From Enterobacter phage vB_ExiM_F4M1E: a stretch of DNA of 64,000 nt. The stretch lies in sequence record OL744216.1; one strand, given 5' to 3'. A program made the position numbers and the translations under genes. A model generated the notes under the pieces. The model was not told the origin of the DNA and searched no databases. It saw only the letters and a list, made by a program, of their open reading frames with translations. Numbering within the stretch: position 1 is the stretch's first letter; every line of letters starts with the position of its first letter. Shown piece after piece: positions 1,446-28,310 of this stretch.

Positions 1446-1650
1446 AAAACAGTTCGTCTGCCATGTCGTTTAAGACTTGGGCCAGTTCCCGTGCCTTCTC
1501 CCGAGAAAGGTACATAAACTCCTCTCCGAGGCAACAAGGCCCACCAGTCCGGCGGACAGCCAAAACTATTTGGCGATACCCTCGTGGTTCAACCACCGCC
1601 GTGGTCGAAGAGTATTTATCCTCACGATCACCATCAATATACTTTCTCAT
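1414..1650 (-). CDS. hypothetical protein (78 aa)
   Basis: ORF in operon context; overlaps neighbour by 32 nt. Confidence 0.4.
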   Translation of the reverse strand: MRKYIDGDREDKYSSTTAVVEPRGYRQIVLAVRRTGGPCCLGEEFMYLSREKARELAQVLNDMADELFFEEQRANGNE

Positions 1651-2681
1651 TTCTTCCCCTTACGCTTAAATTTGTTGTGACCCTTACCACGGCGGAGCTT
1701 AGTGTGCTCCCAATCACGTGCTGGTTTCTCGACCTTAGCGATAGCTGCAAGCTCGTTAAGGTTCCACGTATCGAAAGAATGACCAATTACAGCCAACTCT
1801 TCTTTTCGGAACCCGGTAAGTGCAGCGGCGAGAGAAGCACCAATCCCAGTGCCGCCAACTATAGCTACTTTACGCTGCTTGTCAAGAAATTCTTTGGCCT
1901 TTTCCACAGAGATCTCTTCCACCTCTGAAAGGTCGAGATCCTTTTTACGTGCGCCGTACATCCACGCCCACATAACAGGTTTCAAAGCCTGCTTGGTGCC
2001 AAAGTAAACATCCACATTGAACTCCCGGCAGAGCTTCATCAGTTCCCTCATGGTTTCATCGGCAGTGCGGACCAAGATGTTTGCATCTGGGATGGCCTCC
2101 ACAAAGATCGGATGTTTACGAACACCCATGAACTGATAAACCTCGTCAGATCGTTCCAATCGGGCGCGGAGTCGCTTGAACTCTTCCGGGTCCTCCACCA
2201 AGTCCGTGATTTTGAACATCAGCGGATGCTTCGGTTTCGGAACGTCCTGTAAACACATCTCCTCCAGCTTGGCAAAGTCCCCTTCCAATTGGAGGGTGAA
2301 CTCAGTATTCTTGTCGATGGGGCGCATCTTTCCTCCCGGCATCTGCCATTCCATAACCAGACGGGCTGGAATACGGCGTCCTGTTGGGCTGGTCACAACC
2401 TTCAAATCGTGTTTACGGACGAGTTCACGAACCTCTTCCACGACCTTGGCGATTGCCGGATCGTCACCGGAGAAATTAATATCCGGGCGAGCCGCCAGAA
2501 ATTGATCCATATCTACCATTACCGTGCGGGCCTTTTCCATGTCGATTTCAAATCCCTCTGCACGTTGCTTTCTGAGGTTTTTCAAGTGGTCCTTGAAGAA
2601 CGGGTCTTCGATAAAAATACCTTCGTCCAAAGTTACACGGGCTTCTTCGAAAGTCTGACCTTGGGATTTGAAATTGTTCAT
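1647..2681 (-). CDS. hypothetical protein (344 aa) with C-terminal GGTGIGAS glycine-rich loop and Lys-rich tail
   Basis: long ORF; GxGxxG-like motif VAIVGGTGIGAS near C-terminus; function not recognised. Confidence 0.55.
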   Translation of the reverse strand: MNNFKSQGQTFEEARVTLDEGIFIEDPFFKDHLKNLRKQRAEGFEIDMEKARTVMVDMDQFLAARPDINFSGDDPAIAKVVEEVRELVRKHDLKVVTSPTGRRIPARLVMEWQMPGGKMRPIDKNTEFTLQLEGDFAKLEEMCLQDVPKPKHPLMFKITDLVEDPEEFKRLRARLERSDEVYQFMGVRKHPIFVEAIPDANILVRTADETMRELMKLCREFNVDVYFGTKQALKPVMWAWMYGARKKDLDLSEVEEISVEKAKEFLDKQRKVAIVGGTGIGASLAAALTGFRKEELAVIGHSFDTWNLNELAAIAKVEKPARDWEHTKLRRGKGHNKFKRKGKK

Positions 2682-16097: not shown

Positions 16098-16099
16098 TA

Positions 16100-16582: not shown

Positions 16583-16617
16583 AAAATCTATACAGAGGTT
16601 CAAATCGAAATGCAAAT

Positions 16618-16722: not shown

Positions 16723-16998
16723 CTCCAGAATAGCGGGCAGGTCCGGTGATTGTCTCCGGGTCAATTCTCCCCGCTATGTGTATAATATAACCCAAGCCCG
16801 GCCCGGTTGCAAGCGTCTTTACAGTTCTTTACAAAACTATTTTAGGCGAACTACCGGCGATCCACCTTCCGACCTGGCCCCGGTGCCCGGTACGTTAGCC
16901 CCGCCTTTTCGCCGTGGGGTGGCGTCTCCTCTCCTGTATGTGTACATTATGCACCAGGCCCGGCGGGCCGTCAATACAAAAATCAAAATAAATTTTTC

Positions 16999-17028
16999 TT
17001 GACCTGCCAGGCAAGCCGGGCCACAATG
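16999..17028 (+). promoter_or_regulatory. promoter P1 (TTGACC-N17/18-CACAAT)
   Basis: first of the promoter array. Confidence 0.4.
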
Positions 17029-17057
17029 CAGGCACACCAACAAAAGGAGATCGACCC

Positions 17058-17390
17058 ATGCAACAGACGAAATATTTTATTGAAGGAACAGCCGCCGCCC
17101 ACGCCGGGCAGATCCGCGCCTGCCGCTACAATAAAGAAGAGAACCGCCGCGAATGGTTCGCCGGGTTCGATAGTGTGGATCGTGGTTTCGCCGTGTTTAA
17201 GATCCTCCCTGGCCCCGGCGCTGTTAAGCTGGCTGACCTGGACCCCGTTTATATTGGTGGCGTTAAACAATGCCAGGATCGCGCCGTTACCCTGCAACAG
17301 ACAGACCGCGCCGGGCGCTATGTCATTTATGATATGGCAACGGGCAAGCCGTACCAGGAAAGCACAAAATTAAATTACAAAAATATTTAA
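17058..17390 (+). CDS. hypothetical early-type protein (110 aa)
   Basis: ORF behind P1 with RBS AAAGGAGA. Confidence 0.5.
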   Translation: MQQTKYFIEGTAAAHAGQIRACRYNKEENRREWFAGFDSVDRGFAVFKILPGPGAVKLADLDPVYIGGVKQCQDRAVTLQQTDRAGRYVIYDMATGKPYQESTKLNYKNI

Positions 17391-17399
17391 AATAATGCT

Positions 17400-17428
17400 T
17401 GACGGGGCCGACGATAGGCCCCATAATT
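17400..17428 (+). promoter_or_regulatory. promoter P2 TTGACG-N17-CATAAT, spacer GGGCC..GGCCC dyad
   Basis: consensus hexamers and 17-nt spacer. Confidence 0.6.
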
Positions 17429-17479
17429 CACCACATAGCGACGCACACCGCGCCGCACTAACAAAGAGAGACCGTCATC

Positions 17480-17917
17480 ATGTTACATTCAATCAATAAA
17501 GAGCAAAAACTGTACGTCCTGAAGTGTGGCAACGGCTTTACCTGCTATGGGTTCGAAGTGCTGGACACAAACGCCCGCAAGGTTAAGCAGTGGTTAGAAT
17601 CTGAAGGTGCAACAGTTGAGGATCTGCCATATCGCAAGGGCACAAAGAAGCATTATAAAGCCTGTCAAGATATGATCGCCGCTGGTTGTGCTTATCATGC
17701 CAGAACGGGCAAACGCTGCCTTGCTGGACTCACCAAACAATTAAAGGGCCTGGAGGGTCGCCGGGTAGAAGTGATCACAATGTACGGCGAAAAGCGCCGC
17801 TTTATTGTGGGTCGCTCTACTGGCTGGATGCCTGCCCACCTGGAGATCGCCCGCGCTAACAGTAGCGGCGGCATGAGTGCAGAGCAGCAATATAAATCTG
17901 TAACCATCGTAAAATAA
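17480..17917 (+). CDS. hypothetical protein (145 aa)
   Basis: RBS AAGAGAGA; behind P2. Confidence 0.5.
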   Translation: MLHSINKEQKLYVLKCGNGFTCYGFEVLDTNARKVKQWLESEGATVEDLPYRKGTKKHYKACQDMIAAGCAYHARTGKRCLAGLTKQLKGLEGRRVEVITMYGEKRRFIVGRSTGWMPAHLEIARANSSGGMSAEQQYKSVTIVK

Positions 17918-17930
17918 TTTAAAAAGAGTA

Positions 17931-17959
17931 TTGACACCGGGGCCACCTGGCCCCATAAT
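17931..17959 (+). promoter_or_regulatory. promoter P3 TTGACA-N17-CATAAT (GGGGCC-ACCT-GGCCCC spacer)
   Basis: consensus. Confidence 0.6.
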
Positions 17960-18008
17960 ACAAACAAGCCCGGCAAATGGTGCCCGGCAAAATCAGAGAG
18001 TAAAGAAA

Positions 18009-18230
18009 ATGGCTAAAGTAACCTATAAAAAATCACGTGGCGTCTCCTCTGTTAACCTGGCGGCGGTTGTAACCCTGCCCGCATACCGTACCCGTGACGA
18101 GGCGCGCGCCGTTGCCAGTAAGATCCGCGCCGCTGGCGTGACTCCGACAACGCCAACCAAAACGGCGGACGGCTGGCGCGTTACCGCAAAGCATAACGGC
18201 GGCACACTTTCCCGCAACACTCACCGCTAA
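18009..18230 (+). CDS. hypothetical basic protein (73 aa)
   Basis: ATG 18009 with RBS AGAGAG; Ala/Arg-rich. Confidence 0.45.
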   Translation: MAKVTYKKSRGVSSVNLAAVVTLPAYRTRDEARAVASKIRAAGVTPTTPTKTADGWRVTAKHNGGTLSRNTHR

Positions 18231-18275
18231 CCAATTGCAGGCCCCGCCGGGGGCCTTTTGTGTGGAGTCAGTACC

Positions 18276-18620
18276 ATGACCAAACAGATCTACCATGTAC
18301 CGATCACGCCGCTTTTCCGTTGTCATATCTTTTATGACTGTAATGATCTTGCGGGGCAATGGATCGGCGATACCGATCAACAATATGATTTCCCGGAATG
18401 GGACGAACTAAACCGCCGTGTAAGCAACGCCGCACACAATGCCGATCCTGATAGCCTGGCGGACGTGGAACACTTCCCCGGCGGGGCCGCTTGCTTTCCT
18501 TATATTGAGATCACCGCGCCAACGTGGGCGCTATGTAAAGCGATGGGCGACGCCGTGATCCGTTGCATCCTGGACAATGGCGGGATCGTCGAACCAAAAG
18601 ACAACGGAATAAATATTTAA
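18276..18620 (+). CDS. hypothetical protein (114 aa)
   Basis: RBS GTGGAG; no own promoter, shares P3 transcript. Confidence 0.45.
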   Translation: MTKQIYHVPITPLFRCHIFYDCNDLAGQWIGDTDQQYDFPEWDELNRRVSNAAHNADPDSLADVEHFPGGAACFPYIEITAPTWALCKAMGDAVIRCILDNGGIVEPKDNGINI

Positions 18621-18639
18621 ATTATTTTCGTTTTAGGGG

Positions 18640-18668
18640 TTGACGCCGCCCGGGGTTACCCTCATAAT
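18640..18668 (+). promoter_or_regulatory. promoter P4 TTGACG-N17-CATAAT
   Basis: consensus. Confidence 0.55.
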
Positions 18669-18720
18669 GTACCACATAGGGCGACGGAATAACCCGCCGC
18701 CAAAACCAAAAGGTAACAGT

Positions 18721-18960
18721 ATGCAAACCGTAATGATTAGCCACCCGGATCACGCTTCAGACTTCTACGCCCCGATCTACGCCCCGCTTGATTGGCAACG
18801 CCAGGGCCTGCAAAAAACCGCCACGGGCTATGGCACAAAGATCCCAACGTCCTATATGTTGGACTATCAAGGCAAGCGCCGTCGGATCTACGTTGACCAG
18901 TACAGCAACAGCGGCCACACTTACATCATGATCAAAGGCGAAAAAATTACGGTCTGCTAA
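18721..18960 (+). CDS. hypothetical protein (79 aa)
   Basis: ATG 18721 with RBS AAAGGT. Confidence 0.45.
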   Translation: MQTVMISHPDHASDFYAPIYAPLDWQRQGLQKTATGYGTKIPTSYMLDYQGKRRRIYVDQYSNSGHTYIMIKGEKITVC

Positions 18961-18969
18961 AAATAATTG

Positions 18970-18998
18970 TTGACCGGGGGCCGGAAAGGCCCCATAAT
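18970..18998 (+). promoter_or_regulatory. promoter P5 TTGACC-N17-CATAAT (GGGGCC..GGCCCC)
   Basis: consensus. Confidence 0.6.
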
Positions 18999-19030
18999 AC
19001 CAGACATACCAAACAAACGAGGCTTTACAA

Positions 19031-19261
19031 ATGAATCTGACTACTATCGGCGCTAACCAAACTATGATCACCCTGGCAAATGGCGCACAGGTTTTCTTTT
19101 CCTACAATACCCCGGTTGCGGCATACCTGCCCGGAGAGGGCTACTTGGTGACCGCCACAAAGCACAGCGCCACCACCTCAAAGCATGTTAATGCTTGGGC
19201 TGGCAAAGGTTGCGAGACCCGCCCACAGGAATTTTTTGATAATCTTATCAAATCCGCTTGA
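19031..19261 (+). CDS. hypothetical protein (76 aa)
   Basis: RBS ACGAGG. Confidence 0.5.
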   Translation: MNLTTIGANQTMITLANGAQVFFSYNTPVAAYLPGEGYLVTATKHSATTSKHVNAWAGKGCETRPQEFFDNLIKSA

Positions 19262-19287
19262 CGCTGGTTTCTGCCGGGGTATATAAT
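19258..19287 (+). promoter_or_regulatory. promoter P6 TTGACG-N18-TATAAT
   Basis: consensus; overlaps stop of previous gene. Confidence 0.55.
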
Positions 19288-19339
19288 CCCCGGCATAGGC
19301 AAGCGAAAGCAAACAACCAAACCGAAAGGATACCAAACG

Positions 19340-19720
19340 ATGAATATTTTCAACACTGTAAACGCCGCCGACATCAAAGAAATTTCCGTAACTGGCAAAC
19401 GTTGGTTTCAGCGTAGCTATGGCAACACGTATCACAGCGTAAGCGTCGCCGCCGTGGTATCACGTGAGACAGCCGAAAACTTGGGGGCTAATCCATCCCC
19501 GGCGGGATCTGGCGACGTGTGGATCGACCTGGGTTATGTTGGGTTCGCTTATGGTTATGATCGCGGGTTCGAACAAACCGCCCTGGCTATCCTGATCGAG
19601 GCTGTAAGCGATGCGCCGCAGGACTGGAAACAAAATTCATACGCTTGCCAGGTGGCAACGGCTTTAAATGTGCCTTACTCCGAAAACGTTTATGATGTTA
19701 GCCGCAAAAAGGATTTATAA
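19340..19720 (+). CDS. hypothetical protein (126 aa)
   Basis: RBS GAAAGGA. Confidence 0.5.
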   Translation: MNIFNTVNAADIKEISVTGKRWFQRSYGNTYHSVSVAAVVSRETAENLGANPSPAGSGDVWIDLGYVGFAYGYDRGFEQTALAILIEAVSDAPQDWKQNSYACQVATALNVPYSENVYDVSRKKDL

Positions 19721-19726
19721 TTTAGG

Positions 19727-19756
19727 TTGACACGGGGCCGGGTTAGGCCCCATAAT
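19727..19756 (+). promoter_or_regulatory. promoter P7 TTGACA-N18-CATAAT (GGGGCC..GGCCCC)
   Basis: consensus. Confidence 0.6.
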
Positions 19757-19788
19757 ACCCACAGACCCAAACAAAAGAGTAAAACGCG

Positions 19789-19998
19789 ATGATTAACGAG
19801 CAGCAAGTAAACGACGTAAAACATGAGGCTTATCAGGTGGCGATCCGTAGTGGTTCCCGCGCCGCCTTCAATCTGGTTGTTGAGTTGTACCCTGAACAGG
19901 CGGAAAATATTTTAATGCAGGTTTCCGTATTACTGGAAGCAACAAAGCACACCAAATTAAGCGCCGGGATCGATAAGCTGGCAAAAAGTTTAAAATAG
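19789..19998 (+). CDS. hypothetical protein (69 aa)
   Basis: RBS AAGAGTAA. Confidence 0.45.
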   Translation: MINEQQVNDVKHEAYQVAIRSGSRAAFNLVVELYPEQAENILMQVSVLLEATKHTKLSAGIDKLAKSLK

Positions 19999-20001
19999 TT
20001 G

Positions 20002-20031
20002 TTGACTCTTACCCCGTCCCGCTGGCATAAT
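20002..20031 (+). promoter_or_regulatory. promoter P8 TTGACT-N18-CATAAT
   Basis: consensus. Confidence 0.5.
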
Positions 20032-20086
20032 AGCGGGACTGATTAAGAGAAACACCACACAAACCAAACTAAAGAGAGTAAACATT

Positions 20087-20476
20087 ATGAACGCTAATTA
20101 TGACTTTTCCCAAATGGTTGTCGCATCCTCTACCGATCTGCGTAACTTCCGCAAAGAAAATAACTTTTACAAGGCCGTTCACCTGGTCGGGCTGGTAGAC
20201 GGGGAGATCAAAGATCTGGCGGAGGTTTCATTCTACGGCACCGGGAAAACCAACACGGCTATTTTGTGGATTCACTCCCCGATCCTGTCTCTCTATGGTT
20301 CAAGCGCTGGCAAGGCTGGCGGCTACGGTTACAACCGTGAGGACGCCGCTTTTCAAAGCGCCTTGCGGGGAATGGGGATCAAAAGTACAGGTTACGAATT
20401 GCCACGTGATTTTTTCCCGGCGCTTGCAAAGCATTTAGGGGTTGATGTATACTCAATCATCGAATCACACGGTTAA
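20087..20476 (+). CDS. hypothetical protein (129 aa)
   Basis: RBS AAGAGAG. Confidence 0.5.
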   Translation: MNANYDFSQMVVASSTDLRNFRKENNFYKAVHLVGLVDGEIKDLAEVSFYGTGKTNTAILWIHSPILSLYGSSAGKAGGYGYNREDAAFQSALRGMGIKSTGYELPRDFFPALAKHLGVDVYSIIESHG

Positions 20477-20481
20477 TATGA

Positions 20482-20796
20482 ATGATAACTATTCTCACAA
20501 TGCTGGGACTTGCGGCGGCGGCGATTTACTGCGTCGCTACTTATAAAGCGTCTGTATGGCGAAAGGGTCAAAAAATGTACGGCTATTTTGAATATGAGTA
20601 CAAAGGGGAGAAGGGATCAAGCCGGGACTATGGCGCGATGTTAGAGATCGATATGGTTGGCGCGATGAACTACCGCCAGGAGTTGGGCGCGGTGATCACG
20701 TATGAAGTTTACAAGTCATCTGAGGATGAGATCGGGCAGATAATTGATCAACGTTACTATATGGAACAGCAACAAAACAAACGCCGGAGAAAATGA
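20482..20796 (+). CDS. membrane-anchored hypothetical protein (104 aa)
   Basis: N-terminal TM helix ITILTMLGLAAAAIYCVA. Confidence 0.45.
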   Translation: MITILTMLGLAAAAIYCVATYKASVWRKGQKMYGYFEYEYKGEKGSSRDYGAMLEIDMVGAMNYRQELGAVITYEVYKSSEDEIGQIIDQRYYMEQQQNKRRRK

Positions 20797-20933
20797 GAAT
20801 GATTCACACTAACGAGAACCGCCAAAAGGCACGACCCCGCGCCCGCCTGTCATATGCTGAAGCCGAGGACCGCCTACAGCGTGAAAAGAGCAACAAACAA
20901 CAGCGCCGCAAAACGCGCTATAACTGGGAGTAA
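20793..20933 (+). CDS. small basic protein starting MRMI (46 aa)
   Basis: ATGA overlap; ATGAGAATGATT start shared with ORFs 25938 and 27043. Confidence 0.3.
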   Translation: MRMIHTNENRQKARPRARLSYAEAEDRLQREKSNKQQRRKTRYNWE

Positions 20934-20975
20934 GCGCCCCGGCAGGGAAACACTAGGCCAAACCGTTTAAACCGC

Positions 20976-21006
20976 ACAGGGGGCCTTACAGGCCCCTTAT
21001 TTTTGA
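20976..21006 (+). terminator. intrinsic terminator (AGGGGGCC-TTACA-GGCCCCTTATTTTTG)
   Basis: GC stem plus T-run. Confidence 0.6.
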
Positions 21007-21009
21007 TCT

Positions 21010-21249
21010 ATGGGGTACACAATGCAAAACCTTTACAGCATGACAGAATTTATCCGCCTCCTGGCGGGCCGTCCGATGGGCTTTACCTGCCTTTACTTGG
21101 TAAACGACGGCAAAGGCTACCGGATAACCTCAAAGTCATTAGCCGCCATTGCAGCGCGGGAAGGGGTGAAGATCTCCACCTCTCAGGCGCTCATTGTTGA
21201 CCCGGCGACCGTGGCGACGATTGAGGCGATCCGAGTCACCGTAAAATAA
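21010..21249 (+). CDS. hypothetical protein (79 aa)
   Basis: ORF after terminator; weak RBS. Confidence 0.4.
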   Translation: MGYTMQNLYSMTEFIRLLAGRPMGFTCLYLVNDGKGYRITSKSLAAIAAREGVKISTSQALIVDPATVATIEAIRVTVK

Positions 21250-21272
21250 TTCAAATATTTTCATTCCGGGGC

Positions 21273-21301
21273 TTGACGCCCGGCCCCGGTTCCCCCATAA
21301 T
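21273..21301 (+). promoter_or_regulatory. promoter P9 TTGACG-N17-CATAAT
   Basis: consensus. Confidence 0.55.
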
Positions 21302-21352
21302 ACACCACATAGCGACGCACACCGCGACGCACCAAACAAAAGAGAGTCCGTA

Positions 21353-21772
21353 ATGTCTACTAAAAATCCTTTCCGCATCAAATCAGGTTTATCCGTTTAC
21401 GCACTGGCTTGCGGCTACGTTCAGCAAATCGACACCGAAGTAACCGGGGAAAGTATCCGGGTACAATTGAGAATGGAACACGGCGCGTTTCACGTGCAGG
21501 CGTACAACTTCACCGAACACGGGCGGATCGAATGGGTAGTAGAGGACATGATCGGCGACGCTCGCACACAATGGCAACGCCTTGTAAATCAGATTTTTGG
21601 CGACACCATAAAGGCGACCAAAAAGGATCGCCGCTATACGGTAAATCGTGAGTATCGCGGGGAGAGTGACCCGGCGTATGTGACCCGCTTTTGTGGGGAG
21701 TATGTAGACTACAGCGACACCGCCGCCGCTGGCTGGATTAAGGCCGCAGAACACAAGGCCGGAAAACTTTAA
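21353..21772 (+). CDS. hypothetical protein (139 aa)
   Basis: RBS AAGAGAG. Confidence 0.5.
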   Translation: MSTKNPFRIKSGLSVYALACGYVQQIDTEVTGESIRVQLRMEHGAFHVQAYNFTEHGRIEWVVEDMIGDARTQWQRLVNQIFGDTIKATKKDRRYTVNREYRGESDPAYVTRFCGEYVDYSDTAAAGWIKAAEHKAGKL

Positions 21773-21780
21773 AATAGTTG

Positions 21781-21810
21781 TTGACGCCGGGCACCGTCCC
21801 GGCTTACAAT
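21781..21810 (+). promoter_or_regulatory. promoter P10 TTGACG-N18-TACAAT (CCGGGCACCGTCCCGG dyad)
   Basis: consensus. Confidence 0.55.
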
Positions 21811-21841
21811 ACCCAAACACAAACAAAAGAGAGTCAACACC

Positions 21842-21994
21842 ATGAAACATTATTTAGTAAACATCCCTGGCGTGGCTGGCCCGCTGAAAGTTTACGGCTA
21901 CGACGAACAGGACGCAAGAAAGCGCCTACGTGATCGGGAAGGGTACGGATCACGCCTCCCACGTGGCACAAAACTTTATTTGCAAAACGCTTGA
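21842..21994 (+). CDS. small hypothetical protein (50 aa)
   Basis: RBS AAGAGAG; stop overlaps next promoter -35. Confidence 0.35.
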   Translation: MKHYLVNIPGVAGPLKVYGYDEQDARKRLRDREGYGSRLPRGTKLYLQNA

Positions 21995-22020
21995 CGTGTG
22001 GTTATGCCGTCGCCTACAAT
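21991..22020 (+). promoter_or_regulatory. promoter P11 TTGACG-N18-TACAAT
   Basis: consensus. Confidence 0.5.
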
Positions 22021-22066
22021 TACGGCATAGACAAACGAAAGCAGACAACCAAACGAGGGTTAAATT

Positions 22067-22360
22067 ATGTTTGAAGTATTCGCCGGAATGTGCTTTTATG
22101 CCGCCGCCGCTTTAAAGCAGTGTGATGATTTTGTTGTGGAGTCCTACGACGATCCGCTGACGTGTGAGATCGTGGCGACCGATTACCGCCAGGACACCCG
22201 CTGGATTAACCCGGCTTGTATTCCATCGCCAGAAGTCGAACCGATGCCAGAAGGCGAAGAGATTCAAGATCCTGCCGTGGCTGTTACCTCGTTTTTTGTG
22301 GATAATCTGGACGCCGCCGCGCTGGTCCAAATGTACGCAAGCCAGGAGGCCGCACAATGA
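22067..22360 (+). CDS. acidic hypothetical protein (97 aa)
   Basis: RBS ACGAGGG. Confidence 0.5.
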   Translation: MFEVFAGMCFYAAAALKQCDDFVVESYDDPLTCEIVATDYRQDTRWINPACIPSPEVEPMPEGEEIQDPAVAVTSFFVDNLDAAALVQMYASQEAAQ

Positions 22361-22500
22361 ACCACAGCCGCAACATTGCAAAGCGCCGCCGCCCTAATTC
22401 CAGCGCCGCCAATGATGAGCGCCGGATCGCTGGTTTCATCGCTTGCGGCTACACCGTACAGCAGGCCCGGCAAATGGTAAAAGCAAAAGGCAGAAAATAA
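22357..22500 (+). CDS. small basic protein (47 aa)
   Basis: ATGA overlap; Arg-rich. Confidence 0.3.
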   Translation: MNHSRNIAKRRRPNSSAANDERRIAGFIACGYTVQQARQMVKAKGRK

Positions 22501-22503
22501 TTG

Positions 22504-22533
22504 TTGACACCGGGCACCGTCCCGGCTTATAAT
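22504..22533 (+). promoter_or_regulatory. promoter P12 TTGACA-N18-TATAAT
   Basis: near-identical to P10 and P13. Confidence 0.6.
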
Positions 22534-22571
22534 TCAGCTACACCAAACAAAACAGGCAAACGAGGCCACAA

Positions 22572-22751
22572 ATGAAATCATCCTTACTTTTCGCCCTGGT
22601 AGACATAGTGATCGGCAATGGTTGCGGTCAACATACCTTCATTGCAAACCGTCCCTATCCGCTCAAATCGTTGCAGGCCGACGCCCGCCTAACCGCCGGG
22701 CAGATCCGCCGCTACTTTCGTGAACCACACCCGGCAAAAACTGCAAAATAA
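22572..22751 (+). CDS. small hypothetical protein (59 aa)
   Basis: RBS ACGAGG. Confidence 0.35.
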   Translation: MKSSLLFALVDIVIGNGCGQHTFIANRPYPLKSLQADARLTAGQIRRYFREPHPAKTAK

Positions 22752-22754
22752 TTG

Positions 22755-22784
22755 TTGACGCCGGGCACCGCCCCGGCTTATAAT
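22755..22784 (+). promoter_or_regulatory. promoter P13 TTGACG-N18-TATAAT
   Basis: consensus. Confidence 0.6.
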
Positions 22785-22814
22785 TACCGAACACAAACAA
22801 ACGAGGCTACAAAA

Positions 22815-23114
22815 ATGCAACAGGCAAACACTCTTTTCATTCTGGCAAACGTAGCGGATCACGTTGTGGCGTCACTGTCCAACGTGGCGGGCACCGTGCA
22901 GATCATTTGCCGCCATATGGATGACACCGCGCCGAACCGCCTACAAATCAACGTAGACCGTAAAGGGGCCGACTTTGTGATCTCTTATGATGCCATTTAC
23001 AACGGGCGGCGCTTTATGCAGGCCAAAAGCGACCCGATCCCGGCTAACTACATTCAGGAGGCGATCGCCGTCCTGGTAAACGACACTATCCCGGCGGGGG
23101 CTATGTTACCATGA
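22815..23114 (+). CDS. hypothetical protein (99 aa)
   Basis: ATG 22815 with RBS ACGAGG. Confidence 0.5.
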   Translation: MQQANTLFILANVADHVVASLSNVAGTVQIICRHMDDTAPNRLQINVDRKGADFVISYDAIYNGRRFMQAKSDPIPANYIQEAIAVLVNDTIPAGAMLP

Positions 23115-23266
23115 ATCCGCATAAACTTTTAATCACCGCCTACCCAAACAAGGCGGATCGCCGTGAAACTTTGGACCGCTTAACCCTGTATTATCAGGAG
23201 GCCGGGCACAGTAAAGCGACGGCCCGCGCCTTGGCTAAAAAACGTTTACGTTTTGGTAAAAATTAG
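23111..23266 (+). CDS. small hypothetical protein (51 aa)
   Basis: ATGA overlap. Confidence 0.3.
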   Translation: MNPHKLLITAYPNKADRRETLDRLTLYYQEAGHSKATARALAKKRLRFGKN

Positions 23267-23267
23267 C

Positions 23268-23296
23268 TTGACGCCCGGCCCGAAAGGGCCGATAAT
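23268..23296 (+). promoter_or_regulatory. promoter P14 TTGACG-N17-GATAAT (GGCCC-GAAA-GGGCC)
   Basis: consensus. Confidence 0.55.
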
Positions 23297-23342
23297 CTCT
23301 CACATAGGGCGGGGAATGGTTCCCCGCATTATCTAAGAGGTT

Positions 23343-23501
23343 ATGAATATGTTTACTTTGATGACTTGGGAACACGAATCAAGCGCCCCTGTCCGCCGGA
23401 CCTTTGAAAACTTATGCGCCGCTTATCGCCTGGCGCAAGGCGGTTACTATAAAGCCCAAATCATCGACGAAAATAATATTGTAATGTACGAATTTAAATG
23501 A
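23343..23501 (+). CDS. small hypothetical protein (52 aa)
   Basis: RBS AAGAGG. Confidence 0.35.
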   Translation: MNMFTLMTWEHESSAPVRRTFENLCAAYRLAQGGYYKAQIIDENNIVMYEFK

Positions 23502-23530
23502 TTGACATCCGGCCCGAAAGGGCCGATAAT
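23502..23530 (+). promoter_or_regulatory. promoter P15 TTGACA-N17-GATAAT
   Basis: consensus. Confidence 0.55.
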
Positions 23531-23566
23531 GACCCCACACCAAACAAAAGAGAGAGAGACCGTAAA

Positions 23567-23773
23567 ATGATTACTATGATTCTTCAAAAGTCCCGCCTGA
23601 TTGATGTTACCGTTACCCTGTCCGCTTGCGGTGACACGTCCCGCCGGGCCGATCATTACCAGGTGACCGCTGTTAGTGATCGCGGCGCTGTCCTGCTGTC
23701 TGAAGTAACAGAGCATTTGCACGAGGCTTTTAAAACCTATTCAAAGTGGAAAGGCGACGAAGAAATAAAATAA
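23567..23773 (+). CDS. hypothetical protein (68 aa)
   Basis: RBS AAGAGAGAGAG. Confidence 0.45.
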   Translation: MITMILQKSRLIDVTVTLSACGDTSRRADHYQVTAVSDRGAVLLSEVTEHLHEAFKTYSKWKGDEEIK

Positions 23774-23781
23774 AAATCCGC

Positions 23782-23811
23782 TTGACGCCGGGGCCACGTT
23801 GGCCCCATAAT
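23782..23811 (+). promoter_or_regulatory. promoter P16 TTGACG-N18-CATAAT
   Basis: consensus. Confidence 0.6.
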
Positions 23812-23845
23812 GCCACCACACCAAACGAATAAAGAGAATCACAAA

Positions 23846-24100
23846 ATGTTAAAATTCATCAAATCACTTTTCACCCGCACCACCCCGGCTTGCAAGTTGC
23901 CACCCCTGGAGGCTAAAGGCGTGATCGCTCGCAAAGTCTCAGAATTGTTTATCATTTCATTGGTTCACAACGGCGGAGACTGTTACGAAATCATCGAAAT
24001 GGGCCGCTACACTAAAACAGGGTCAAGCCGTGTCCGTTACGGTGAACACCGCGCCCGGAATCATTTTGATTCTGTATGCTGTATGGTGGGTGCAAAATAA
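23846..24100 (+). CDS. hypothetical protein (84 aa)
   Basis: RBS AAAGAGAA. Confidence 0.45.
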   Translation: MLKFIKSLFTRTTPACKLPPLEAKGVIARKVSELFIISLVHNGGDCYEIIEMGRYTKTGSSRVRYGEHRARNHFDSVCCMVGAK

Positions 24101-24103
24101 ACC

Positions 24104-24132
24104 TTGACGGGGCCAACGTTAGGCCCCATAAT
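24104..24132 (+). promoter_or_regulatory. promoter P17 TTGACG-N17-CATAAT
   Basis: consensus. Confidence 0.6.
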
Positions 24133-24184
24133 GTAACACATAGGGCGACACAACGCCGCCCACAAACAGAAAAGAGATCGTAAA

Positions 24185-24544
24185 ATGAGCAAATACACCC
24201 CGTGGGAACCAATGTACAAAATCACCCTGTCCGAGTGCAGCAAAAACGAACTGGATGGAATTGTCCGCGCCGCTACTGCCGTGATCCGTGGGCTTAACTT
24301 CAAACGTTTAACCTTCAAAGAAGTAAAACAAATTTTTGAAATGCCGGATCACAAGGCCGCTTCCCGCTTGGGGCTTACTGTAACATCGCAAGGGCTTTAC
24401 AAAGATCACGACCTTAAAGGGCCGCACGTGTGGCTTTTAGCTTGCGCCGTGGGCCGCACCATTGCCGACACTATCAAAGAGATGAAAGCGCTACGCGATG
24501 ACGCAAAAGCCCGCCGGGCCGCGCTGGAAGTGGCACAAAAATAA
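24185..24544 (+). CDS. hypothetical protein (119 aa)
   Basis: RBS AAAGAGA. Confidence 0.5.
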   Translation: MSKYTPWEPMYKITLSECSKNELDGIVRAATAVIRGLNFKRLTFKEVKQIFEMPDHKAASRLGLTVTSQGLYKDHDLKGPHVWLLACAVGRTIADTIKEMKALRDDAKARRAALEVAQK

Positions 24545-24557
24545 TTTAAAAATAAAG

Positions 24558-24587
24558 TTGACGCCGGGAAGCGTTACGGGCTATACT
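24558..24587 (+). promoter_or_regulatory. promoter P18 TTGACG-N18-TATACT
   Basis: consensus. Confidence 0.5.
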
Positions 24588-24635
24588 CTTTTCATCGGGT
24601 CACAACAGACCAAAACAAACAAAGAGAGAAACAAA

Positions 24636-24713
24636 ATGAGCGTAATCTTCCTGGTATCTGTTTTCGTAGCTATCGCATCTTCTACCGCAATTTGTATCAA
24701 ACTGGGATACTAA
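24636..24713 (+). CDS. small hydrophobic peptide (25 aa)
   Basis: RBS AAGAGAGA; single TM helix; leader-like. Confidence 0.3.
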   Translation: MSVIFLVSVFVAIASSTAICIKLGY

Positions 24714-24717
24714 TAAA

Positions 24718-25110
24718 ATGACTACTTTCAACGTTTTAAACTTAAACGCTTTTATCGCGGGTTACATTGAGGCAATGTTTTTTGCAGAGTCCGCCACCGA
24801 TAGCGACGGCGAAGAAATCGAAAGTTTAGCCGGGTATGAGTTAAGCGCTGAAGCCCTGGACGCTGCCCGCATGGATTGCGCCCGCTTTATGGATGTTGCG
24901 CCGCTGTTACTCAAAGGGGCAATGTTGGCAGGGGTTGACTACGACCACACCCAGGCAGGCCGGGATCTATGGTTTAGCCGTCAAGGTCACGGCGTAGGAT
25001 TCTGGGATCGCGGACTTGGGACGATCGGTGATAAACTTCACGACGTGGCGCAGACTTTCGGATCAAAAAATCTGTTTATCAATGATGCTGGATTTATTGA
25101 GGTAGAATAA
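24718..25110 (+). CDS. hypothetical protein (130 aa)
   Basis: ORF in array. Confidence 0.5.
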   Translation: MTTFNVLNLNAFIAGYIEAMFFAESATDSDGEEIESLAGYELSAEALDAARMDCARFMDVAPLLLKGAMLAGVDYDHTQAGRDLWFSRQGHGVGFWDRGLGTIGDKLHDVAQTFGSKNLFINDAGFIEVE

Positions 25111-25571
25111 TGAACCTTACAGATCTGAAGTATTACGATGAATTAACCCCAGCGGCGCAAGCTGAAGCCCGGCGCAACGTTGCCGCCAGTGTGCAGACTC
25201 ACCACGGGCGGGAAATCGGAAAGGCGTTTTTTAAATTCCAGCGGGACCCAAACAAGGCGATCAATGACCCGCTACACATCCGCCGGATCGTCAACGGCGG
25301 CGAAGCGTGGCGCAAGATCCGCCAGGAGGGCGACGCCTATCTAATCCGCTTTATCCGGTCCAATAAAGTGATCTTTACTGATTGCGGTGCGTATGTGGCG
25401 TATGTGGACGCCTTCACAATGTTTATTGATGGGTTGGAATACATACCCACAGCCGAACAGCAAAAGACGCTTAGAACGCCTTACATCGACGTTAACGGGC
25501 GCGGCCCGGCGTTTCATAATTGGCTATACCGTATGCACCACAAAATAAAGTTTTTCATGATCCGGGGTTGA
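25110..25571 (+). CDS. hypothetical protein (153 aa)
   Basis: TAATG overlap with upstream. Confidence 0.5.
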   Translation: MNLTDLKYYDELTPAAQAEARRNVAASVQTHHGREIGKAFFKFQRDPNKAINDPLHIRRIVNGGEAWRKIRQEGDAYLIRFIRSNKVIFTDCGAYVAYVDAFTMFIDGLEYIPTAEQQKTLRTPYIDVNGRGPAFHNWLYRMHHKIKFFMIRG

Positions 25572-25596
25572 CACCCGGCGGAATAGGGCCGATAAT
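25568..25596 (+). promoter_or_regulatory. promoter P19 TTGACA-N17-GATAAT
   Basis: consensus. Confidence 0.5.
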
Positions 25597-25649
25597 GTCT
25601 CTCATAGGGCGGGGAATGGTCCCCGGCCCAATGACCTGGAGTCAGTACA

Positions 25650-25901
25650 ATGGAAATCAAACACGTAATTTCTGCAAACGTCGCCGTTTTAGGTTCTGTA
25701 AGTGAAACCCGTGTGAGTCTCGCTAAATGGTGCGCCGCTCAAACTTTCGGGAGTTACGGCGAAAAGGTAACAGAGGTTAAGCGCTTGCTTTCCTTTGGTA
25801 ACGTGGGCCGCAAGTTGTTAACAGAGGATATCGCCCGCCGGGTTGAGATCCATTATTCACTTGCTCAAATCATCGTAAAAGAGATCGAAAGCGTAATTTA
25901 A
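25650..25901 (+). CDS. hypothetical protein (83 aa)
   Basis: RBS GGAG. Confidence 0.45.
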   Translation: MEIKHVISANVAVLGSVSETRVSLAKWCAAQTFGSYGEKVTEVKRLLSFGNVGRKLLTEDIARRVEIHYSLAQIIVKEIESVI

Positions 25902-25937
25902 CCCGGCCCGGCCCCGCAAGGGGCCAACAGAGGACAA

Positions 25938-26162
25938 ATGAGAATGATTATCAAAAACACTTTGGGCAAAACTGATTTTCTGCGCTCGCTGGAGATCGGC
26001 AAGCCGCAAGCCTGGTATTGTAAAAAGCTGGCGCATGATGAAATGAAAGATTTTACAGCCACGTTAACCCGCGTTAAAATCAGCATTACCCAAAAGAAAG
26101 CGCTTTTAGTGATTGAGGGGCAGATCCCGCAAACCGTGATCATTGTTGAGAGGACCGCATAA
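25938..26162 (+). CDS. hypothetical protein starting MRMI (74 aa)
   Basis: Fur-like ATGAGAATGATTATC spans start codon. Confidence 0.45.
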   Translation: MRMIIKNTLGKTDFLRSLEIGKPQAWYCKKLAHDEMKDFTATLTRVKISITQKKALLVIEGQIPQTVIIVERTA

Positions 26163-26163
26163 A

Positions 26164-26388
26164 ATGGGGGCCAATACTCGCAACCGCTACGGCATAACGC
26201 GCCGTTTCGGGGTCTGCTATATGCTGGCAGATGATCCACAATATCGGGCCTTGCTGGAGGCTTACCAGGTCACCAAACTGGACGCCCAAAAGGGCCGGGC
26301 CGAACACGACGCCCACACCGCCAACATTAAAGCGCTTCACGACTTTTTAGCCGTCGCGGAAAAGCGTCACGACATCCGCCACAATTGA
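26164..26388 (+). CDS. hypothetical protein (74 aa)
   Basis: ATG 26164 2 nt after upstream stop. Confidence 0.45.
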   Translation: MGANTRNRYGITRRFGVCYMLADDPQYRALLEAYQVTKLDAQKGRAEHDAHTANIKALHDFLAVAEKRHDIRHN

Positions 26389-26398
26389 GGGCCGAACC

Positions 26399-26593
26399 AT
26401 GATCACAGCTTCAGAGATCCGCCAAACGTTAGCCGCCTTGCGTTACCTCCACGCCTTACGCCGGGAAAGTGATCCGACTTATGCCGGGTCATGCCTGGCT
26501 AACGATGCCGAAAACGGGATCGCCACACTGAAAGAATTAAATGATCGCATGAGCGACAGCGACCGATCCGACTTTATCGGGGGCGAAATATGA
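26399..26593 (+). CDS. hypothetical protein (64 aa)
   Basis: ORF in array. Confidence 0.4.
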   Translation: MITASEIRQTLAALRYLHALRRESDPTYAGSCLANDAENGIATLKELNDRMSDSDRSDFIGGEI

Positions 26594-26898
26594 TCGCCAT
26601 TACGCCAACCGTTTTAGATTGGTATCGCCAGCAGATCGCGCCGCCGCTGGCTATCTTCAAACAGGCCGAAAGCAAACAGCGCCGGATCTCCATTCATGAG
26701 ATCATTACGCTTAACGCTGGGCAGAAAATGAATGTTTCCCGGTCCCATATGGGCAACACGTTAGCGCTTTTAAGTTTACGCCGCAAGCGTCAACGGTTAA
26801 CCCTGGAATCACTCCGCATGATGGGACAGCCGCACCAGGTCACCGGGGACAGGATCGCCAGGGCATGGAACCGGGCAAACAGTCGAAAGGCTGGATGA
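26590..26898 (+). CDS. hypothetical protein (102 aa)
   Basis: ATGA overlap. Confidence 0.45.
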   Translation: MIAITPTVLDWYRQQIAPPLAIFKQAESKQRRISIHEIITLNAGQKMNVSRSHMGNTLALLSLRRKRQRLTLESLRMMGQPHQVTGDRIARAWNRANSRKAG

Positions 26899-27307
26899 AT
26901 TAACAGTGTTCACAGGGGTTGACTTGTTCGCCCCTTTTTTGTTATCCTTTTGTCATGCGATGGCACCTGATGCAGGGGGAGACAAACACCGGACCTGCCC
27001 GCTATTCAGGGAGGCGGACCGGACCTGGGCCGCGCCGGGCAAATGAGAATGGTTATCATTCCCAACAAAATCAAATACATACTTTAAAACCGTTGTCAAA
27101 TTTATTTCTTACCCCTGTATAAATGTACATGCCCGCCAAACGCTCTAAAACGCGTTTTAAGCCGTTTTGCCCTTCCCCGGTATCCTACACCATAAAAATA
27201 TAGATCGCCCGAAATCGGACTTTCGCACTTTTTGTCCTTGCAAACGTGAAATTTTTATGTTAGGCCTGAAGGGCTGAAAGCCGGGTGTACGTTGACAAAA
27301 CTTTACA

Positions 27308-27336
27308 AAACTCCCTATTGACGCCCGGCCCGTTAT
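27308..27336 (+). promoter_or_regulatory. promoter P20 TTGACG-N17-GATAAT
   Basis: consensus; preceded by CTTTACAAAACT motif also found at 16.82 kb. Confidence 0.55.
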
Positions 27337-27398
27337 CCCTGATAATGTATCTCGTAGGGCGGCAATGATGCGACGGCCCACAAAGAGGGGACAGTAAA

Positions 27399-27638
27399 AT
27401 GAAAGAAATCATGACCTTGGTAAAATCCCGTATGTTACGTGGCGGATTCAACGCATACGCCGACGGCAATATCATTGCCACGGTCGCAAAAGTTACAAAA
27501 AATGATAATGATTCTCAGTTCGCCGGGCAGTATCGGATCTGTTTTACCCGTGGAAAGTTGCAAGGTAAAACGGCATACGCACCAGATTTTCAAGAGCTTA
27601 ATGATCGTATTTGCGCCGTTTTAGATTTTGCAAAATAA
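27399..27638 (+). CDS. hypothetical protein (79 aa)
   Basis: RBS AAGAGGGGA. Confidence 0.5.
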   Translation: MKEIMTLVKSRMLRGGFNAYADGNIIATVAKVTKNDNDSQFAGQYRICFTRGKLQGKTAYAPDFQELNDRICAVLDFAK

Positions 27639-27641
27639 ATG

Positions 27642-27670
27642 TTGACGCTGGGGCCGAAAGGCCCCATAAT
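27642..27670 (+). promoter_or_regulatory. promoter P21 TTGACG-N17-CATAAT (GGGGCC-GAAA-GGCCCC)
   Basis: consensus. Confidence 0.6.
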
Positions 27671-27715
27671 ACCCACTCAAGCAACAAACCACTAAAAACA
27701 CTGGAGACCGTAAAA

Positions 27716-28030
27716 ATGACCAAATCTAAATTTTTCGAAATGCTGGATCGCTACCTGTCAAGCCATAACGAGTGGGCCAAACTGGGCAACGGGTACGACT
27801 CATACAAGGCCGAACAGTTAAAACCTTATGTTTTCCATGAGGACCCGGCGAACCTGGAGAAGTGGAAAGCGAAAGATCCGTCCTATCCTTGGACCGCTCA
27901 CGCTTCAGGCTTTACCCTGGCTGATTGTTGGCATGTTGAGGTAATGCAACATAAAACCGCTGAAGCCGCCGAAAAACAGCACGTAATTTTCACCCGCTGG
28001 ATCGCAGACTATCAAAAGGCCCGCGCTTAA
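27716..28030 (+). CDS. hypothetical protein (104 aa)
   Basis: ATG 27716 with RBS GGAGAC. Confidence 0.5.
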   Translation: MTKSKFFEMLDRYLSSHNEWAKLGNGYDSYKAEQLKPYVFHEDPANLEKWKAKDPSYPWTAHASGFTLADCWHVEVMQHKTAEAAEKQHVIFTRWIADYQKARA

Positions 28031-28275
28031 TGTCCCGGCTTTTTAAAATCAATCTTCCATTGTGGGCCGCTTTAGCGGTCCTCATTGCCTTTTCTGGCGA
28101 TACGGTCAACAATTGGATTTTGTCCGCTGTACTTGGACCCGATCAAATGGTCACAACATTTTTAAACGCTTTCGGCGCTACACTGGCAACGGCCCGCCTT
28201 GCCTATCGTGGCAAATCAATAAACCGTTATGATCTGGCGCTATCACTGCCCGCCCTGGTTACCTGCCTAAACTGA
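28030..28275 (+). CDS. membrane protein (81 aa)
   Basis: two TM helices; TAATG overlap. Confidence 0.45.
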   Translation: MSRLFKINLPLWAALAVLIAFSGDTVNNWILSAVLGPDQMVTTFLNAFGATLATARLAYRGKSINRYDLALSLPALVTCLN

Positions 28276-28278
28276 AGA

Positions 28279-28310
28279 GGCCCGCCACCCCGGCGGGCTT
28301 TTCTTTTGTC
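28279..28310 (+). terminator. intrinsic terminator (GCCCGCC-ACC-CCGGCGGGCTTTTCTTTTG)
   Basis: GC stem plus T-run; ends the rightward block. Confidence 0.7.

Follow-up and report, generated by a model that had tools for sequence, protein, structure and literature searches.

The early-gene region of Enterobacter phage vB_ExiM_F4M1E (sequence record OL744216.1) was analyzed within a window of 64,000 nucleotides, which is the whole stretch of DNA studied here and whose coordinates are used throughout. In the flagged part of this window (17400-27670), most of the early promoters were found to carry a G+C dyad that lies between the -35 and -10 hexamers or around one of them. The feature is real and conserved, and it is best filed as a further case, outside the T4 group, of the composite cassettes of promoter and hairpin known as PeSLs (promoter-early stem-loops) and described in the T4-like phages RB49/phi1 (PMC2839356), PST/T4 and nt-1/KVP40 (PMC4122927). 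The dyads are probably terminator-type RNA hairpins nested in strong host-type promoters, where they would attenuate read-through and/or protect the 3' end.

The flagged region is an early-gene region with about 34 small genes on the + strand, each encoding 25-153 amino acids. It matches Certrevirus, a group of rV5-like myoviruses in the Vequintavirinae, in mosaic pieces of 83-92% identity, the matching phages including Enterobacter SS-2025, Pectobacterium POP17, phiTE and CB7, Cronobacter CR3, CR8 and CR9, and Klebsiella KaOmega. A total of 21 sigma70-type promoters of the form TTGACN-17/18-NANA(A/C)T were found on the + strand at 16999-27670, with scores of 9-12 out of 12, each located in the gap between two small genes. 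For the pattern TTGAC-N16-20-AYAAT the window has 25 occurrences, compared with an expectation of 1.8. The gaps between genes measure 70-100 nt and are arranged alike. An A/T-rich tract 5' of the -35 element (for example aaaaTAAttgTTGAC) holds the stop codon of the upstream gene, which lies 0-15 nt before the -35 element or, at 19258, 21991 and 25568, inside it; the start site is predicted at about CA|TAG and is followed by a CA-rich leader of 35-70 nt, which ends in a ribosome-binding site (AAAGAGAG or ACGAGG) and the ATG of the next gene. The TGA of the upstream gene within the -35 element (T-TGA-CG; 19259-19261, 21992-21994 and 25569-25571) illustrates the tight packing of the cassettes. 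In the CB7 paper, the promoter AAAA(N3)TGTTGAC(N17)TATAAT was reported to be concentrated in this region throughout the genus, with no mention of a hairpin or palindrome (PMC7344957), and the rV5 and phiTE papers likewise do not mention either.

A spacer dyad was defined as a perfect inverted repeat of at least 5 bp with a loop of 3-8 nt, located between the last base of the -35 and the first base of the -10 element. Twelve of the 21 promoters contain such a dyad, with stems of 5-7 bp, compared with 1.47 +/- 1.15 (maximum 7) in 2000 composition-preserving shuffles of the spacers, with the caveat that the promoters are paralogous repeats and the twelve dyads are non-independent. The claim of the earlier note that at least twelve promoter spacers hold a GC-rich dyad was thus borne out, and its example dyads were located at 17939-17954, 23277-23290 and 21787-21802/22510-22525. 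The twelve dyads belong to only three stem families. The GGGGCC family has seven members, in the promoters 17399-17427 (TTGACG-17-CATAAT; hairpin 17404-17422, GGGGCC-gacgata-GGCCCC; minimum free energy, MFE, of the RNA -14.4 kcal/mol, z -2.8), 17931-17959 (TTGACA-17-CATAAT; 17939-17954, GGGGCC-acct-GGCCCC), 18970-18998 (TTGACC-17-CATAAT; 18977-18993, GGGGCC-ggaaa-GGCCCC; z -3.45), 19727-19756 (TTGACA-18-CATAAT; 19734-19751, GGGGCC-gggtta-GGCCCC), 23782-23811 (TTGACG-18-CATAAT; 23790-23806, GGGGCCA-cgt-TGGCCCC), 24104-24132 (TTGACG-17-CATAAT; 24109-24127, GGGGCC-aacgtta-GGCCCC) and 27642-27670 (TTGACG-17-CATAAT; 27649-27666, TGGGGCC-gaaa-GGCCCCA). Three promoters have a (G)CCGGG stem, namely 21781-21810 (TTGACG-18-TACAAT; 21786-21803, GCCGGG-caccgt-CCCGGC), 22504-22533 (TTGACA-18-TATAAT; 22510-22525, CCGGG-caccgt-CCCGG, then CTTATAATT) and 22755-22784 (TTGACG-18-TATAAT; 22760-22777, GCCGGG-caccgc-CCCGGC, then TTATAATT). 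The remaining two carry CGGCCC-gaaa-GGGCCG, at 23276-23291 in promoter 23268-23296 (TTGACG-17-GATAAT) and at 23510-23525 in promoter 23502-23530 (TTGACA-17-GATAAT), and these two are the left and right repeat copies flanking gene 23343-23501. The motif GGGGCC-N3-8-GGCCCC occurs nine times in the window against 0.02 expected. Seven of these occurrences are in + strand promoter spacers, one is in a terminator (20980) and one surrounds the -10 element of a - strand promoter (2714-2742).

The dyad is also found outside the spacer, which the earlier note had missed. Three promoters have a dyad of 7-8 bp around the -10 element: element 19258-19295 (TTGACG-18-TATAAT; 8-bp hairpin 19272-19295, TGCCGGGG-tatataat-CCCCGGCA; z -3.8), for which compensatory variants exist in orthologues, element 20002-20039 (TTGACT-18-CATAAT; 8-bp hairpin 20016-20039, GTCCCGCT-ggcataat-AGCGGGAC; z -4.95) and element 21991-22029 (TTGACG-18-TACAAT; 8-bp hairpin 22003-22029, TATGCCGT-cgcctacaatt-ACGGCATA). 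Two have it around the -35 element. In element 21266-21301 (promoter 21273-21301, TTGACG-17-CATAAT) a 7-bp hairpin is found at 21266-21289 (CCGGGGC-ttgacgcccg-GCCCCGG), and in element 25562-25596 (promoter 25568-25596, TTGACA-17-GATAAT) a weak 5-bp hairpin at 25562-25578 (CCGGG-gttgaca-CCCGG). A G+C hairpin of at least 5 bp is therefore present in 17 of the 21 promoters. The four without one are 16999-17027 (TTGACC-17-CACAAT), which is the first of the + strand array, has no co-directional gene upstream and shows only a weak mismatched dyad; 18640-18668 (TTGACG-17-CATAAT; z -0.55); 24558-24587 (TTGACG-18-TATACT; z +0.3), with only a 4-bp dyad (ACGC-cgggaa-GCGT); and 27318-27346 (TTGACG-17-GATAAT), which has no GC dyad and lies 3' of a 400-bp non-coding stretch.

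The -10 hexamers comprise CATAAT (10), GATAAT (4), TATAAT (3), TACAAT (2), CACAAT (1) and TATACT (1), so that CATAAT or GATAAT replaces the consensus in 14 of 21 promoters, as had been noticed earlier. The geometry of the dyad accounts for this preference. In most cases the first base of the -10 hexamer is also the final base of the 3' arm; as part of the last base pair of the stem it is C or G: GGGGCC...GGCCCC|ATAAT gives C, and CGGCCC...GGGCCG|ATAAT gives G. A stem that stops two bases short of this point (GCCGGG...CCCGGC-TT) goes with a -10 element of TATAAT or TACAAT. Restriction or methylation sites in the stems (GGCC, CCGG) were set aside as an explanation; any G+C palindrome holds such sites.

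The window was then compared with the homologous regions of 12 relatives, and this set of 13 genomes contains 231 promoter instances. Hairpins of at least 5 bp were found in 180 of them, 129 located in the spacer, 32 around the -10 element, 13 around the -35 element and six with other overlaps, the remaining 51 having none of this length. No hairpin extends beyond the predicted +1 by more than 3 nt at its 3' end. The spacer hairpins come in 35 distinct forms that use ten distinct 5' arms, and the single stem GGGGCC/GGCCCC alone carries 18 different loops of 3-7 nt, the loops reaching 11-12 nt outside this stem. The gap-free alignment for covariation comprised 15 distinct promoters, all having a spacer of 17 nt and a loop of 4 nt. 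All of its cells (100%) pair, both sides change in three of the six pairs, and the covariation score of 0.394 compares with 0.093 in shuffles and was reached by none of 500. For the hairpins around the -10 element, pairs were counted from anchored arms because MAFFT placed the inner stem out of register; here CG/TA, GC/TA and GC/CG exchanges occur among orthologues, with TGCCGGGG/CCCCGGCA, TGCCGGGT/ACCCGGCA and TATGTGGGG/CCCCACATA as examples of compensatory exchange. Judged from these alignments, the conserved feature is the pairing and not a particular sequence, spacing or position. Compensatory change across the 13 genomes also supports the proposal in the earlier note that a conserved dyad at this place implies a second function.

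The feature is not general in the subfamily. In rV5 (genus Vequintavirus) the spacers are mostly A/T-rich and lack dyads, with only three PeSL-like elements, while SSBI34 is intermediate and has compensated stems such as GGGGCG/CGCCCC and GGCCCC/GGGGCC. In IMG/VR the exact motif was found mainly on contigs of Certrevirus size. Single exact composite motifs (for example TTGACAATGGGGCCgcaaGGCCCCATAAT) were also seen on three IMG/VR contigs that have no nucleotide similarity to the window (L014, 5530-5558; L018, 1650-1678; L022, 3223-3252), where the motif stands among ordinary promoters without dyads.

The variability of the dyads bears directly on one of the functions put forward earlier, an operator for a single dimeric regulator, either a host protein or a phage early protein, that switches all cassettes together. 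Such an operator would explain the dyad symmetry, the position in the promoter core and the repetition at most early promoters, and the GGGGCC/GGCCCC arm is indeed very common. However, there are ten arms among the spacer hairpins and more in the other classes, the loops of 3-11 nt leave the distance between half-sites unfixed and the dyad takes three positions relative to the hexamers; pairing that is conserved without fixed sequence, spacing or position argues against an operator of this kind. The same dyad moreover forms the stem of a canonical terminator (20980), no recognisable DNA-binding domain was found in the ten largest early proteins (one of them has a sub-threshold ParB-HTH hit of 17.6 bits against a cut-off of 22.6, in the open reading frame 26590-26898), and a separate palindrome of fixed spacing in the region (GAGAAT-N-ATTCTC) looks more operator-like. 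We regard the operator as highly improbable.

This second palindrome is unrelated to the dyads and has the form GA(G/T)AAT-N-ATT(C/A)TC, a 6-1-6 inverted repeat. There are 16 matches to AATGAGAATGATTATC with at most three mismatches, against 0.56 expected. They cluster in two long non-coding regions flanking the early array (16618-16723 and 28608-29222), with further copies at 20795-20807, 25940-25952, 27045-27057 and 27504-27516. In two genes that have no promoter, 20793 and 25938, a copy overlaps the start codon (ATGAGAATGATT, encoding MRMI), and another overlaps the start of an open reading frame at 27046. The palindrome is kept at matching positions in all 11 of the Certrevirus relatives, with 4-7 copies per locus, and we take it to be close to the E. 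coli Fur box GATAATGATAATCATTATC. Because its spacing is fixed, it looks from its sequence like a true operator, for host Fur or a phage repressor, or like a set of iterons.

Three observations distinguish the two strands of the dyads. Among the internal non-Watson-Crick pairs in otherwise good stems, seven are G·T, one is A·C and four are of other kinds, and in the hairpins around the -10 element all four are G·T. The prevalence of G·T over A·C points to the sense-strand RNA, in which G·U is tolerated, while in a cruciform A·C would be found on the complementary strand. Tetraloops of the GNRA type (GAAA, GGAA and GCAA) occur in three stem contexts on the sense strand and in none on the antisense strand, and the - strand promoter 30273 likewise has a GAAA loop in its own sense orientation. 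Finally, the loops are purine-rich on the sense strand (103 purines against 54 pyrimidines). This asymmetry is suggestive of a dyad that acts through the sense-strand RNA and not through duplex DNA.

The same asymmetry weighs on the other function that had been put forward for the dyads, a DNA-level element in which the spacer is extruded as a cruciform or stiffened so that firing depends on supercoiling. Dyads in or across the promoter core would fit such an element, G+C-rich spacers are unusual for strong promoters, and in the early promoters of phage N4 short hairpins of 5-7 bp do extrude. A cruciform nevertheless needs both strands paired, and the G·T pairs, the sense-only GNRA loops and the purine-rich loops favour one strand; stems of 5-6 bp with loops of 7-11 nt would make poor cruciforms, and a dyad found around the -35 element, in the spacer or around the -10 element offers RNA polymerase no consistent geometry. 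This explanation appears very unlikely to us.

In RNA folding, the hairpins dominate the predicted structures, which have MFE values of -12 to -27 kcal/mol. Most dyad promoters have z values of -1.4 to -5 and the four dyad-less promoters are at about 0; the exceptions are 22504 (-0.76), 24104 (-0.56) and 25568 (+0.73), the dyad of the last being absent from the MFE structure. The stems also resemble those of the terminators in the region. The canonical intrinsic terminators at 18239-18256 (+; AGGCCCC-gccg-GGGGCCT, then TTTGTGT) and 28280-28298 (+; GCCCGCC-acccc-GGCGGGC, then TTTTCTTTT), the second of which closes the + strand early array, have stems similar to the spacer dyads, and that at 20980-20996 (+; GGGGCCT-tac-AGGCCCC, then TTATTTTTG) has an identical one. 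The dyads themselves were rejected as canonical intrinsic terminators: the G+C hairpin is present, but not the U-tract, taken as about five or more U in the 8 nt directly after the stem. A simple terminator scan passes only two promoter hairpins, both of the GCCGGG-caccgY-CCCGGC type with TTATAATT (22510-22525 and 22760-22777).

Taken together, each small early gene appears to be bracketed by a composite PeSL-type cassette, which consists, in order, of the A/T-rich tract with the stop codon, the -35 element TTGAC(N), the G+C dyad, the -10 element (N)ATAAT, the start at about CA|TAG, the CA-rich leader with the ribosome-binding site, and the ATG. As duplex DNA, its two hexamers would recruit the host sigma70 RNA polymerase, as their match to the consensus suggests. 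The dyad is always upstream of the cassette's own +1 and is therefore present only in transcripts begun at an upstream cassette. In such read-through RNA it would fold into a hairpin of 5-9 bp with about -12 to -15 kcal/mol, which may stop or attenuate the read-through and/or block 3'-exonucleases. As a result the expression of each cassette would depend on its own promoter, and occlusion of the downstream promoter would be avoided. The nesting of the hairpin within the promoter may be explained by compaction, given intergenic gaps of only 70-100 nt, and it gives up the -12 base of the -10 element to close the stem, hence CATAAT and GATAAT.

A narrower version of this reading, in which the hairpin only protects RNA 3' ends from PNPase or RNase II after endonucleolytic cleavage in the A/U-rich -10 element and so stabilises the upstream mRNA in the manner of a REP (repetitive extragenic palindromic) element, is in keeping with hairpins that lack U-tracts and have stable G+C stems and GNRA loops. 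It also finds support in a free-standing hairpin between two genes at 25910-25925 (+; GGCCCC-gcaa-GGGGCC, with a GNRA loop), which has neither a T-run nor a promoter, and in the 5' stem-loops with which some leaders open, suggesting mRNAs built for stability. The result that counts against protection alone comes from RB49, where lacZ expression fell as far with the stem-loop of PeSL211/210 as with rrnB T1 (PMC2839356); this stem-loop is of the spacer type without a U-tract, and its behaviour indicates an effect on polarity and not just stabilisation. We consider protection alone unlikely.

For the terminator-type hairpin itself, we can propose with little confidence how a U-tract might be dispensed with. 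The -10 hexamer could take its place: an upstream polymerase that still carries sigma70 would pause as sigma re-binds the -10 element in the non-template strand, and the hairpin, which ends exactly at -12, would form during this pause and release the transcript over the weak AUAAU hybrid. If so, a single 29-bp sequence would act as a strong promoter and also, with the help of sigma but no U-tract, as a terminator, and its independent occurrence in T4-like phages, in Certrevirus and on scattered contigs would reflect convergence or a mobile regulatory module spread between phage families.

The cassettes also appear to serve in the exchange of genes. When positions 16000-29000 were compared with the 12 relatives by megablast, 30 of the 62 clusters of homology breakpoints fell in intergenic gaps that bear a promoter, against a random expectation of 11.6 +/- 3.1; these gaps account for 16.7% of the sequence. 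Gene 23343-23501 of the window, flanked by two identical cores CCGGCCCGAAAGGGCCGATAAT, is extra relative to PcCB7V and CB7; these two phages have one chimeric promoter instead, whose upstream flank matches the window at 23268 and whose downstream flank matches it at 23502. DU_PP_I lacks gene 21353-21772, with the crossover located in the shared leader AACAAAAGAGAGTC. On this junction-level evidence, the cassette of about 60-100 bp, repeated about 20 times, would provide the homology for recombination through which gene cassettes are inserted, deleted or swapped.

These findings invite the explanation that the dyad has no regulatory role and merely rides in a repeated recombination module, through gene conversion and the spread of cassettes, or is itself a recombination hot spot. 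The stem families are few, near-identical cores are repeated within and between genomes, the junctions of cassette insertions and deletions lie within the elements, and one crossover in RB49 was mapped to the loop itself (PMC2839356). What a passive module leaves unexplained is that the loops vary freely in sequence and length while the pairing stays, that different stems all pair perfectly, that the mispairs are RNA-compatible G·T, and that the design recurs, with different stem sequences, in unrelated phages (RB49 and those of the scattered IMG/VR contigs). We find a purely recombinational role quite unlikely.

Several points weigh against the dyads as terminator-type RNA hairpins. With so few stem families, the covariation stems from a handful of independent events, and gene conversion among the repeats could keep both arms matched. 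The counts of G·T and A·C pairs are small and the events not fully independent. The U-tract is missing: the mean number of T in the next 8 nt is 2.5 after spacer hairpins and 0.8 after those around the -10 element, and only 1% of the promoter-embedded hairpins reach five T in 8 nt. Termination or attenuation by the hairpin is suggested by analogy with one RB49 reporter experiment. Four of the 21 promoters have no hairpin, though three of these follow a co-directional gene, 18640 and 24558 closely and 27318 with 400 bp of non-coding DNA in between. The divergent promoter 16946-16974 (-; TTGACG-17-CATAAT) has a 5-bp spacer dyad (16957-16969, GGCCC-gcc-GGGCC) with no known transcription into it. 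Finally, an enrichment of intergenic breakpoints is expected under any mosaic model, so that it is consistent with shuffling of the PeSL type without proving it.

Two more promoter-hairpin elements of the cassette type were found outside the flagged range. At 2708-2742 (-), upstream of gene 2681..1647, the promoter TTGACA-17-TAATAT has GGGGCC-tgtaatat-GGCCCC around its -10 element, and at 7179-7211 (+), GGCCCAT-atata-ATGGGCC overlaps the -10 element of TTGACT-16-TATAAT. At 30245-30289 (-), the hairpin AAGGGCC-gaaa-GGCCCTT (sense orientation) lies directly 5' of the -35 element of TTGACC-17-TATACT. A different, recurrent and near-identical hairpin, (AAA)CCGCC(C)-cgaa-(G)GGCGG(TTT), was seen 3' of - strand genes at 29820-29835, 32363-32376, 35215-35234, 55904-55925 and 61994-62009. 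On the - strand these have a UUCG loop followed by a T-run and are canonical terminators with the tetraloop in the sense orientation.

Within the cassettes, several long leaders open with a G+C stem-loop of their own directly after the start motif CATAG (for example GCGGGGAA-tgg-TTCCCCGC), at 18680-18705, 23309-23327, 24143-24161 and 25610-25625, and these may be 5' stabiliser hairpins; other cassettes have a short CA-rich leader. The tandem-repeat search returned only short repeats of 9-23 nt, and a 12-nt unit resembling CACACAGCGACG, in about 2.2 copies, is found in the leaders of two cassettes (17432-17458 and 21306-21332). No matches were obtained over the whole window with Rfam at gathering thresholds or with tRNA scans. 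A stretch of about 420 bp without a convincing gene (26899-27317) is 85-93% conserved in relatives and has no Rfam match; it holds a weaker promoter-like site at 26919-26948 (TTGACT-18-TATCCT) and one GAGAAT-N-ATTATC site. All PHROG families matched by the ten largest early proteins have unknown functions, and in Pfam these ten proteins have no hit that reaches the gathering cut-off, only three faint sub-threshold ones.

These results extend the PeSL design from T4-like phages to an unrelated myovirus lineage in which only the promoter consensus was on record. The design looks like a general answer to the packing of many small, independently expressed and exchangeable genes into a phage early region. 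For annotation, a G+C dyad in a phage early promoter probably marks the boundary of a transcription unit and not an operator. The element is also a compact natural part for synthetic biology, with insulation and promotion combined in one sequence, and it sharpens the mechanistic question of how read-through could be lowered by a hairpin that stops precisely at the -10 element and lacks a U-tract.

The closest known counterparts of these cassettes are the PeSLs of RB49 and phi1. A PeSL consists of a near-perfect sigma70 promoter, an A/T-rich tract with the upstream stop codon, a stem-loop, and a 3' Shine-Dalgarno sequence with a start codon (PMC2839356, PMC4122927), and every PeSL feature that can be assessed from sequence was found in the window cassettes. 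In RB49/phi1 the stem-loops are 'most commonly between the -35 and -10 or overlapping the -10', with five position classes, and strong promoter activity was demonstrated for only one RB49 PeSL, PeSL206/205 (PMC2839356). PeSLs prefer ORFans (genes without known relatives) in hyperplastic regions, and recombination between them shuffles cassettes (PMC2839356, PMC4122927). Mini-circles arising by recombination between flanking elements are a further characteristic of PeSLs. The two systems are alike in the near-consensus sigma70 promoter, the A/T tract with a stop codon, the stem-loop of a G-run and a C-run, and the 3' ribosome-binding site and ATG, and also in their clustering among small ORFans in a variable region with cassette-indel junctions within the elements. 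By direct scan we located PeSL211/210 of RB49 (aaaaaagttgTTGACAGGGGATcacgtATCCCCTATACTacacac), which has a spacer hairpin TTGACAGGGGATcacgtATCCCCTATACT without a U-tract and the same architecture as the window elements; a direct comparison sets TTGACAGGGGATCaccGATCCCCTATAAT of RB49 against TTGACACCGGGGCCacctGGCCCCATAAT of the window. Both also share GTTG directly before TTGAC and a CA-rich start region resembling ACACACATACC, flanking bases that could reflect convergence on one RNA polymerase optimum or the exchange of a regulatory module. They differ in host lineage, the T4 group as opposed to Certrevirus (Vequintavirinae), and in stem sequence, which is GGGGATC in RB49 and GGGGCC, CGGCCC or GCCGGG here. 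In the RB49 stem the closing pair is formed by the A of TTGACA and the T of TATAAT, so that the -10 consensus is kept, whereas closure by G-C or C-G here costs the T at -12. When the early proteins were compared with 49 kb of RB49 by tblastn, no gene common to both phages emerged, and hence no evidence of cassette exchange with RB49; three early proteins have rV5 homologues by tblastn.

The PeSLs of PST/T4 and nt-1/KVP40 are likewise composite promoter-terminator motifs at indel junctions in variable regions, but their stem-loop lies just upstream of the promoter and is of mixed composition, A3-4G3-loop-C3T3-4 (PMC4122927). In the window this layout was found only at the - strand promoter 30273. 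REP-type and other 3' stabiliser hairpins resemble the dyads in being stable, intergenic and without a U-tract, and could block 3' exonucleases, whereas REP elements are not part of promoters and follow a consensus of their own, to which no sequence similarity was seen.

In the early promoters of phage N4 the hairpin is the promoter itself, with a fixed 3-nt loop and register, and is read as extruded DNA by the virion RNA polymerase. Like these, the dyads form short hairpins (5-7 bp, G+C) at the early promoters of a phage, but they accompany a sigma70 consensus and their loops and register vary. Both features ruled out an N4-type hairpin promoter, as did the lack of a phage RNA polymerase gene, which the CB7 authors reported for this genus (PMC7344957). 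Rho-independent terminators share with the cassettes a G+C hairpin at the 3' end of a gene, and the one at 20980-20996 shares the stem itself. The difference is that 99% of the promoter-embedded hairpins have no U-tract and carry the A/U-rich -10 element (AUAAU) in its place.

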